11,220 nucleotides of DNA. Source: Escherichia coli (GTDB lineage: Bacteria; Pseudomonadota; Gammaproteobacteria; Enterobacterales; Enterobacteriaceae). The stretch is taken from assembly GCF_003334765.1 (NCBI RefSeq), contig NZ_QOWT01000057.1; one strand, 5' to 3'. Below the pieces are notes generated by a model. The model was not told where the DNA came from. It saw only the letters and a program-made list of their open reading frames with translations, and did not search any database. Below are positions 4,757 to 5,805 of the stretch, piece after piece. Position numbers and translations under genes: made by a program. How positions within the stretch are numbered: the first letter of the stretch is position 1; each line of letters begins with the position of its first letter.

Positions 4757-5544
4757 ATGAGTCAGAAATACCTCATTCGCATTGCAGAACTGGAAAGGTT
4801 GCTCTCTGAGCAGGCTGAAGCCCTCCGTCAGAAAGACCAGCAACTGAGTCTGGTTGAAGAGACGGAGGCCTTCCTGCGCTCTGCGCTGGCCCGCGCCGAA
4901 GAAAAGATCGAAGAGGAGGAACGGGAAATAGAACATCTTCGGGCTCAGATAGAAAAACTGCGCCGGATGCTGTTCGGTACCCGTTCTGAAAAACTGCAGC
5001 GTGAGGTTGAACAGGCTGAGTCCCAACTGAAACAACGAGAACAGGACAGCGATCGTTACAGTGGGCGAGAGGATGACCCGCAGGTTCCCCGCCAGTTGCG
5101 ACAGTCACGTCATCGTCGTCCGTTACCGGCACATCTTCCCCGTGAAATACACCGCCTGGAACCTGAAGAAAGTTGTTGCCAGGAGTGTGGCAGTGAGCTG
5201 GATTATCTGGGGGAAGTCAGTGCTGAGCAGCTGGAACTGGTGAGCAGTGCCCTGAAAGTGATCCGCACTGTTCGGGTAAAAAAAGCCTGTACAAAATGTG
5301 ACTGTATTGTTGAAGCACCGGCGCCGTCCCGTCCGATAGAGCGTGGTATCGCAGGTCCCGGCTTGCTTGCCCGTGTGTTAACGGGAAATACTGCGAACAT
5401 CTGCCACTGTACCGTCAGAGTGAAATCTTTGCCCGTTAGGGCGTCGAGCTGAGCCGTGCATTACTCTCCAACTGGGTTGACGCGTGCTGCCAGTTAATGG
5501 CTCCGCTGAATGATGCCCTATACCGTTATGTGATGAACTCCCGC
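4757..5544 (+). pseudogene. tnpC: IS66-family transposase TnpC, N-terminal part; frameshifted, in-frame TAG, 3' truncated
   Basis: Coiled-coil N-terminus and Cys-rich zinc-finger-like segment (CCQECGSELDYLGE...CTKCDCIVEAPAPSRPIERGIAGPGLLARVLTG) in frame 2. The conserved continuation ([53 protein letters not shown]) is in frame 1 from about 5383, with TAG at 5437-5439. Homology ends about 5540-5550, where the frame runs directly into rsmI-like sequence. Confidence 0.8.
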
Positions 5545-5805
5545 CTGGGAACCATCCACGGCACGTCGGTCGGCGAACTGCTGGCGTGGATCAAAGAAGA
5601 TAAAAACCCTCGCAAAGGCGAGATGGTGCTGATTATTGAAGGCCATAAAGCCCAGGATGACGAACTGCCCGCCAATGCGCTGCGTACGCTGGCGCTGTTG
5701 TAGGCTGAGCTGCCGTTGAAGCAAGCGGCGGCGTTGGCGGCAGAAATCCACGGAGTGAAGAAGAATGCGTTGTATAAGTATGCGCTGGAAAAGCAGGGGG
5801 AATAA
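5545..5805 (+). pseudogene. rsmI: rsmI (16S rRNA C1402 2'-O-methyltransferase) 3' fragment, about 85 codons, with in-frame TAG
   Basis: [83 protein letters not shown], stop TAA 5803-5805. Resembles the C-terminus of RsmI/YraL as recalled from memory. The N-terminal roughly 200 codons are absent and replaced by IS66 sequence. In-frame TAG at 5701-5703. Confidence 0.6.

Follow-up and report, generated by a model that had tools for sequence, protein, structure and literature searches.

A probable relic of a foreign rsmI gene joined to a truncated IS66 transposase gene in a tRNA-Phe (pheV) island of Escherichia coli

RsmI (YraL) is the 16S rRNA cytidine(1402)-2'-O-methyltransferase, a family represented by the profiles NF011570 and TIGR00096, and its N-terminal part forms the SAM-dependent methyltransferase fold. 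IS66-family elements of the ISEc23 or IS682 type carry the genes tnpA, tnpB and tnpC. Remnants of both were found next to each other in a stretch of 11,220 nucleotides from E. coli (assembly GCF_003334765.1, contig NZ_QOWT01000057.1), the whole of which is referred to here as the window; a literature search on this rsmI pseudogene returned nothing relevant. The locus belongs to a known class of mosaic islands. In the EC958 genome paper, GI-pheV is one of several uropathogenic E. coli (UPEC) genomic islands at chromosomal integration hot-spots, and island modules are separated by IS elements (PMC3203889). The mosaic tRNA islands of ExPEC (GI-pheV/PAI-pheV) share with the locus studied here an integrase at tRNA-Phe and modules lying between decayed IS3, IS66 and IS100 elements; the window adds one module traceable to the native Enterobacter rsmI-kbaY arrangement and is otherwise not unusual. 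We estimate a probability of about 93% that positions 5383-5805 are a non-functional relic within such an island at tRNA-Phe (pheV), decaying neutrally while the native rsmI is untouched. The features of the window that bear on this reading are as follows.

4299..4379, + strand: 3' remnant of IS66 tnpA, about 80 bp; homology to ISEc23 begins at 4299, equivalent to L005:1800 inside tnpA
4376..4726, + strand: IS66 tnpB accessory protein gene, an intact 116-aa ORF (from the ORF list; WP_000625622.1, TnpB, in the matching genome)
4757..5544, + strand: 5' half of an IS66-family tnpC, a pseudogene with 263 of 537 codons, 93.5% identical to ISEc23
5386..5388, + strand: 1-bp deletion in an A-run of tnpC (AAAA in ISEc23, AAA in the window)
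5437..5439, + strand: TAG from CAG at codon 228 in the shifted tnpC frame, in the island lineage of the window only; CAG in ISEc23
5544..5545, + strand: tnpC/rsmI junction, with both genes cut internally (alignments with ISEc23 and rsmI homologues)
5545..5805, + strand: 3' fragment of a probably xenologous rsmI, equivalent to residues 202-286 of E. coli RsmI; first 201 codons absent
5550..5551, + strand: 1-bp deletion in an A-run of rsmI (GGGAAACC to GGGAACC), a gap in multiple alignments
5701..5703, + strand: TAG where RsmI has Gln254; present in the window, EC22, T309, NC101 and the metagenome-assembled contig L008
5547..10904, no strand assigned: foreign block with rsmI', a 629-aa ORF, malY-like and malX-like genes and a kbaY 3' fragment (colinear blastn)

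The whole window matched 16 complete E. coli chromosomes at 99.9-100%, and in these the locus is flanked by speC-yqgA-tRNA-Phe-integrase on its 5' side and by a second agaR on its 3' side, and is not at lpoA-rsmI-yraK. In one of them (NZ_OY754357.1, strain F1022), the order is speC, yqgA, tRNA-Phe, integrase, an IS3 pseudogene, a transposase fragment, a MarR-family regulator gene, IS100, the IS66 remnants, the rsmI fragment, a gene for a 629-aa hypothetical protein, a MalY/PatB-family gene, malX, aldolase fragments, agaR and a UxaA-family pseudogene. An integrase adjoining tRNA-Phe downstream of speC-yqgA and followed by mosaic cargo (locus L001) identifies a pheV integrative island, and the tRNA-Phe gene itself falls just outside the window. 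RefSeq describes the tnpC piece as 'frameshifted; internal stop; incomplete' and flags the rsmI piece as a pseudogene ('internal stop; incomplete; missing N-terminus'), naming its product either 'hypothetical protein' or '16S rRNA methyltransferase'; both pieces are thus already known as pseudogenes from that annotation.

Other debris is present in the same window, including an IS3-family transposase pseudogene broken by several frameshifts and stop codons (986-2513), a further transposase fragment (2572-2990) and a 90-bp phosphoethanolamine-transferase remnant (~832-921), and this content is consistent with an old, decaying island. All 16 matching genomes carry a 1954-bp IS100 (istA/istB) at 4298/4299 with TGA on both flanks, and the window is without it; the IS100 site (4296-4299) falls exactly on an older deletion joint, the left end of the IS66 remnant, where homology starts at 4299. 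The IS100-free junction of the window was found in 0 of 5426 complete genomes, none of which reproduces the window exactly. The window could derive from an ancestor that predates the insertion or from a strain that has lost IS100, or the assembly could have skipped the repeat.

The IS66 part was compared with an intact ISEc23 element (L005; tnpA-tnpB-tnpC, TnpC of 537 aa) by pairwise alignment, which gave 93.5% nucleotide identity between window positions 4299-5544 and L005:1800-3046. Gene order and an intact tnpB are as in ISEc23 and IS682-type elements, whereas the element in the window has lost both ends, retains about 80 bp of tnpA and has a tnpC that stops at codon 263 of 537 and contains a frameshift and a TAG. 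Position 4299 is its left truncation point, most of tnpA being lost together with the left inverted repeat, and RefSeq annotates an incomplete IS66 accessory protein at the tnpA remnant. The tnpC piece scored 154.1 bits against NF033517 (cut-off 180) and covered only profile positions 4-148 of 387, short of a complete transposase. With tnpB as the only intact gene and both terminal inverted repeats missing, the element cannot transpose. Within tnpC, the deletion at 5386-5388 causes a frameshift, so the frame that opens at ATG 4757 closes at TGA 5450-5452; past the deletion, conserved TnpC residues go on in another frame, as seen when both frames are translated.

It is this other frame that continues towards rsmI. 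A preliminary description made from the sequence had reported an IS66 tnpC frame running uninterrupted into the end of rsmI at 5383-5805, with two in-frame TAG codons. Translation bore out these coordinates and both TAGs: in frame 1 of 5386-5805, the only in-frame stops are TAG 5437-5439 and TAG 5701-5703. The junction had been estimated at about 5540-5550, and alignments place it within that range at 5544/5545, with truncated tnpC on the left, truncated rsmI on the right and at most one C common to both. With the joint marked by a caret, ISEc23 reads ...AACACCCGC^AAGGTT, rsmI homologues read ...AAAAC^CTGGGAAACC and the window reads ...AACTCCCGC^CTGGGAACC; in a wider alignment, intact rsmI reads ...ACCAAAAC(C/G)TGGGAAACCAT... 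and the window ...AACTCCCGC^CTGGGAACCAT.... The alignment with ISEc23 collapses beyond 5544. Because tnpC and rsmI are both cut internally, the joint points to an illegitimate deletion and not to an IS end or a transposition event.

Alignments with intact rsmI genes required 262 columns for 261 query bases, and the missing base at 5550-5551 sets the rsmI remnant in frame with the already shifted tnpC remnant. Without this deletion the two remnants would be out of frame, so the 'uninterrupted' tnpC-rsmI frame, while visible in translation as first described, is an accident of two 1-bp deletions that the preliminary description did not mention.

That the right-hand part derives from rsmI, as the last 85 of about 286 codons fused to a truncated IS66 tnpC, was supported by both a profile match and alignments. 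Alignment had been proposed as a check on whether 5545-5805 is rsmI-derived at all, and it is: the fragment matched positions 204-287 of the 287 in NF011570 (E=1e-42), at 146.5 bits against a cut-off of 502. Its score against TIGR00096 was 59.1 (cut-off 167.9), below that of a full-length RsmI, and its amino-acid identity to enterobacterial RsmI proteins is 89-93%. While the last 85 codons are clearly homologous to RsmI, the fragment differs from that protein in lacking the N-terminal 201 residues, in an internal TAG and a 1-bp deletion, in its non-native context and in a sequence foreign to E. coli. It has neither its own start codon nor an unbroken frame (TAG 5701, the 5550-5551 deletion and the absence of the first 201 codons), and it lies in the pheV island instead of the orthologous position divergent from lpoA. 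Without the catalytic domain, the fragment would be expected to have no C1402 2'-O-methylation activity.

A fragment that is truly rsmI-derived, with 70% of the gene absent, is also what would be seen if an IS66-associated event had destroyed the only rsmI of the strain, with loss of 2'-O-methylation at 16S rRNA C1402. The preliminary description had raised this possibility in stating that rsmI is reduced to a 3' fragment, and its confirmation would have yielded a natural E. coli without Cm1402 in 16S rRNA, relevant to studies of translation fidelity. We consider it extremely unlikely. The locus is the pheV island and not lpoA-rsmI-yraK, and the fragment is only ~84-85% identical to E. coli rsmI, compared with mostly 95-100% among native copies. 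In F1022, which matches the window at 100%, an intact rsmI (685482-686342, 861 bp, 286 aa, no stops) is present in the native order lpoA-rsmI-yraK-yraJ-yraI...aga...agaR; this is the intact copy at another locus that had been named in advance as the finding that would speak against loss.

The same holds across the species. A search with the F1022 native gene found full-length rsmI in 5424 of 5426 complete E. coli genomes. When the fragment plus its 3' flank was used as the query, the island-type fragment was found at >=95% identity in ~516 genomes, native rsmI was matched at 84-85% in essentially all genomes, and the total came to 5953 places in 5425 genomes, which is what the presence of both the fragment and the native gene in island-bearing genomes would give. 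We infer a native rsmI in the strain of the window from its near-identical relatives (the 16 matches, all with IS100) and from this near-universal conservation. With native rsmI at lpoA-rsmI-yraK untouched, methylation of 16S rRNA C1402 should be unaffected. From the initial interpretation, therefore, the structure and the C-to-T decay discussed below were retained, and the loss of the strain's rsmI and of Cm1402 was contradicted by the intact gene in the matching genome and by a full-length copy in 5424 of the 5426 genomes.

To examine how the relic has changed over time, five copies of the island were compared: the window, EC22, T309.Ta3, NC101 and the metagenome-assembled contig L008. The joint, the 5550-5551 deletion and TAG 5701 are common to all five and, being present in every variant examined, are old. 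Copies differ in how much IS66 sequence survives on the left, with ~1.25 kb in the window, ~120 bp in T309 and NC101 and ~85 bp in EC22, and these ends appear to be later nested deletions. T5539, K5602, N5674 and K5791 are restricted to the lineage of the window. Among the island copies, the rsmI part contains 9 non-synonymous and 1 synonymous polymorphic codons, as well as fixed replacements at residues that do not vary among the three intact rsmI genes used for comparison; such a pattern marks sequence that drifts free of selection.

Both TAG codons fit the same picture. The preliminary description had anticipated a former Gln (CAG) at each, and relatives agree: the 5437 position is CAG in ISEc23 and in the island copies T309.Ta3 and NC101 (the region is deleted in EC22 and L008), and at the 5701 position all 79 intact homologues of rsmI from other Enterobacterales encode Gln (61 CAG, 18 CAA), with CAG in native E. 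coli copies. Two CAG-to-TAG changes are consistent with C-to-T decay after inactivation, as first suggested. By our own count, the 5386-5805 frame offers 11 single G:C-to-A:T changes to a stop codon, 8 of them to TAG (from codon tallies of six former or current CAG, one CAA and two TGG), and a CAG origin of both stops is unremarkable. We also considered TAG as a reassigned or programmed codon and rejected this, as there are two TAGs only and both are CAG in relatives; moreover, one is lineage-specific and the other lies in a fragment with the 9:1 ratio of non-synonymous to synonymous polymorphism.

Where the fragment came from is indicated by its DNA identity, which is ~84-85% to E. coli rsmI and 92.4% to rsmI of Kluyvera georgiana, and by the sequence that follows it. 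Positions 5547-10904 form a single colinear blastn alignment of ~5366 bp at ~86% to Enterobacter cloacae M-7, E. hormaechei subsp. hoffmannii and E. quasihormaechei. There, the matching segment comes directly after lpoA-rsmI, in the native order lpoA-rsmI-orf629-malY-malX-kbaY, and the rsmI fragment of the window is the left edge of this foreign 5.4-kb block. Colinearity with the Enterobacter lpoA-rsmI locus suggests that the rsmI'-orf629-malY-malX-kbaY' module is a piece of another enterobacterium's chromosome, and on sequence comparison the rsmI fragment appears to be a xenologue and not a duplicate of the host gene. Closest relatives differ by part, with the rsmI piece pointing to Kluyvera and the downstream block to Enterobacter-type loci only. 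In a scan of one genome per species, no donor was found closer than 92.4% (K. georgiana, rsmI part only) or 86% (Enterobacter, whole block). Beyond the window, the island continues into agaR and a garD-like pseudogene, which mirrors the native E. coli order rsmI...aga...agaR...garD and fits the same foreign origin.

Given that an IS66 remnant adjoins the fragment and that the host does carry an rsmI, the fragment might instead be a second copy of the 3' end of the host's own rsmI, carried into the island through IS66 activity. This is most improbable in view of ~15% nucleotide divergence from every E. coli rsmI, set against 92% identity to K. georgiana. Further, the flanking 5.4 kb (orf629-malY-malX-kbaY') follows rsmI in Enterobacter, whereas yraK follows it in E. 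coli, and the position of the joint, within tnpC instead of at an IS end, excludes transposition as its cause.

The coordinates, homologies, joint, former codons, intact native gene of F1022 and colinearity with Enterobacter were observed directly. From these, a foreign relic in the pheV island could have arisen as follows, where we infer the sequence of steps, how the deletion occurred and that the relic is not expressed. A block from the chromosome of another member of the Enterobacteriaceae, with the order lpoA-rsmI-orf629-malY-malX-kbaY, would have entered the island. An illegitimate deletion may then have fused codon 202 of the foreign rsmI to a point midway through an ISEc23-like tnpC, with loss of the 3' half of the element and of the first 70% of rsmI. 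The 1-bp deletion at 5550-5551 and the CAG-to-TAG change at 5701 would have been early events, and the 1-bp deletion in tnpC, the CAG-to-TAG change at 5437 and several amino-acid changes would have followed later in the lineage of the window. Left with neither a promoter-proximal start nor a catalytic N-terminal domain, the remnant has presumably drifted neutrally since.

On balance, we favour a broader reading in which the rsmI scrap is a molecular fossil: the orf629-malY-malX module, present in ~10% of complete genomes, would have come in a single piece from the native lpoA-rsmI-...-kbaY region of a donor resembling Enterobacter or Kluyvera, all island variants would descend from a single IS66/rsmI joint, and the scrap would be a datable marker of the formation and spread of the module. 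The shared junction, 1-bp deletion and TAG tie the variants to one ancestral event, which gives the relic modest value as a phylogenetic marker, and the shared features of the joint point to an Enterobacter- or Kluyvera-like origin of the adjacent cargo. The case is otherwise a routine one of gene remnants and IS debris in a mosaic island.

One of the five copies deserves separate comment. L008 (SFGN01000089.1) is an 8-kb contig labelled 'MAG: Lachnospiraceae bacterium' that contains the IS66/rsmI joint and TAG 5701 at 98.9% identity. It was rejected as a donor on account of having the same IS66 joint as the E. coli island, and is probably a mis-binned Escherichia contig carrying E. coli island sequence.

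The pattern of left ends is also relevant to whether the remnant is retained for a function. The remnant could contain a chimeric 68-aa ORF (5497-5703), yield a tnpC'-rsmI' product by amber suppression, or serve the convergent 629-aa gene as a 3' element or terminator. Selection for such a role would explain why the nested left deletions of different islands all stop short of the fragment, as 5/5 variants keep >=85 bp of IS66 and the whole rsmI fragment despite differing upstream deletions, and the fragment does lie tail-to-tail with an intact conserved gene. Five variants are, however, too few to separate retention from shared ancestry, and the 9:1 ratio, the shared nonsense codon and the frameshift argue against such a role. 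No promoter-like site was found in 5300-5950, which leaves the + strand of the remnant without one, and the one weak minus-strand terminator-like site in the region is at chance level. A GC-rich intergenic palindrome (5806-5870) does not exceed shuffled sequence in stability (z = -0.08), and no Rfam family was matched anywhere in the window. Retention for function is thus very unlikely, and the remnant, missing the N-terminal 201 residues, is predicted to be functionless.

Several observations concern the genes downstream of the fragment. The minus strand bears at 5872-7785 an intact ORF (629-637 aa) that converges on the rsmI fragment and is named 'enterotoxin' or 'hypothetical protein' in RefSeq. 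Searches with its product in Pfam (E<=10) and NCBIfam gave no match, and the ORF is conserved at ~86% DNA identity beside native rsmI in the Enterobacter cloacae complex; these searches and the Enterobacter comparison gave no support to the 'enterotoxin' label. In malX, also on the minus strand, a T-run at 10512-10518 has one T fewer than in NZ_OY754357.1, which puts the first ~5 codons out of frame and leaves an open frame of 501 aa from ATG 10467, compared with an annotated protein of 523 aa starting at ~10533; either a true frameshift or a sequencing error in the homopolymer would account for this. With regard to island malX as the classic ExPEC 'PAI marker', the primer sequences used for the search, which may differ from the published ones, had no match in the window at <=3 mismatches, and the gene is not assigned to that marker here. 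Lastly, the island (5547-10904 plus L001:15604-17015) amounts to a second, foreign and partial rsmI-aga-garD neighbourhood beside the native aga region of the host, with kbaY fragments, a garD-like pseudogene and a complete second agaR, whose product could cross-talk with the native aga operon.
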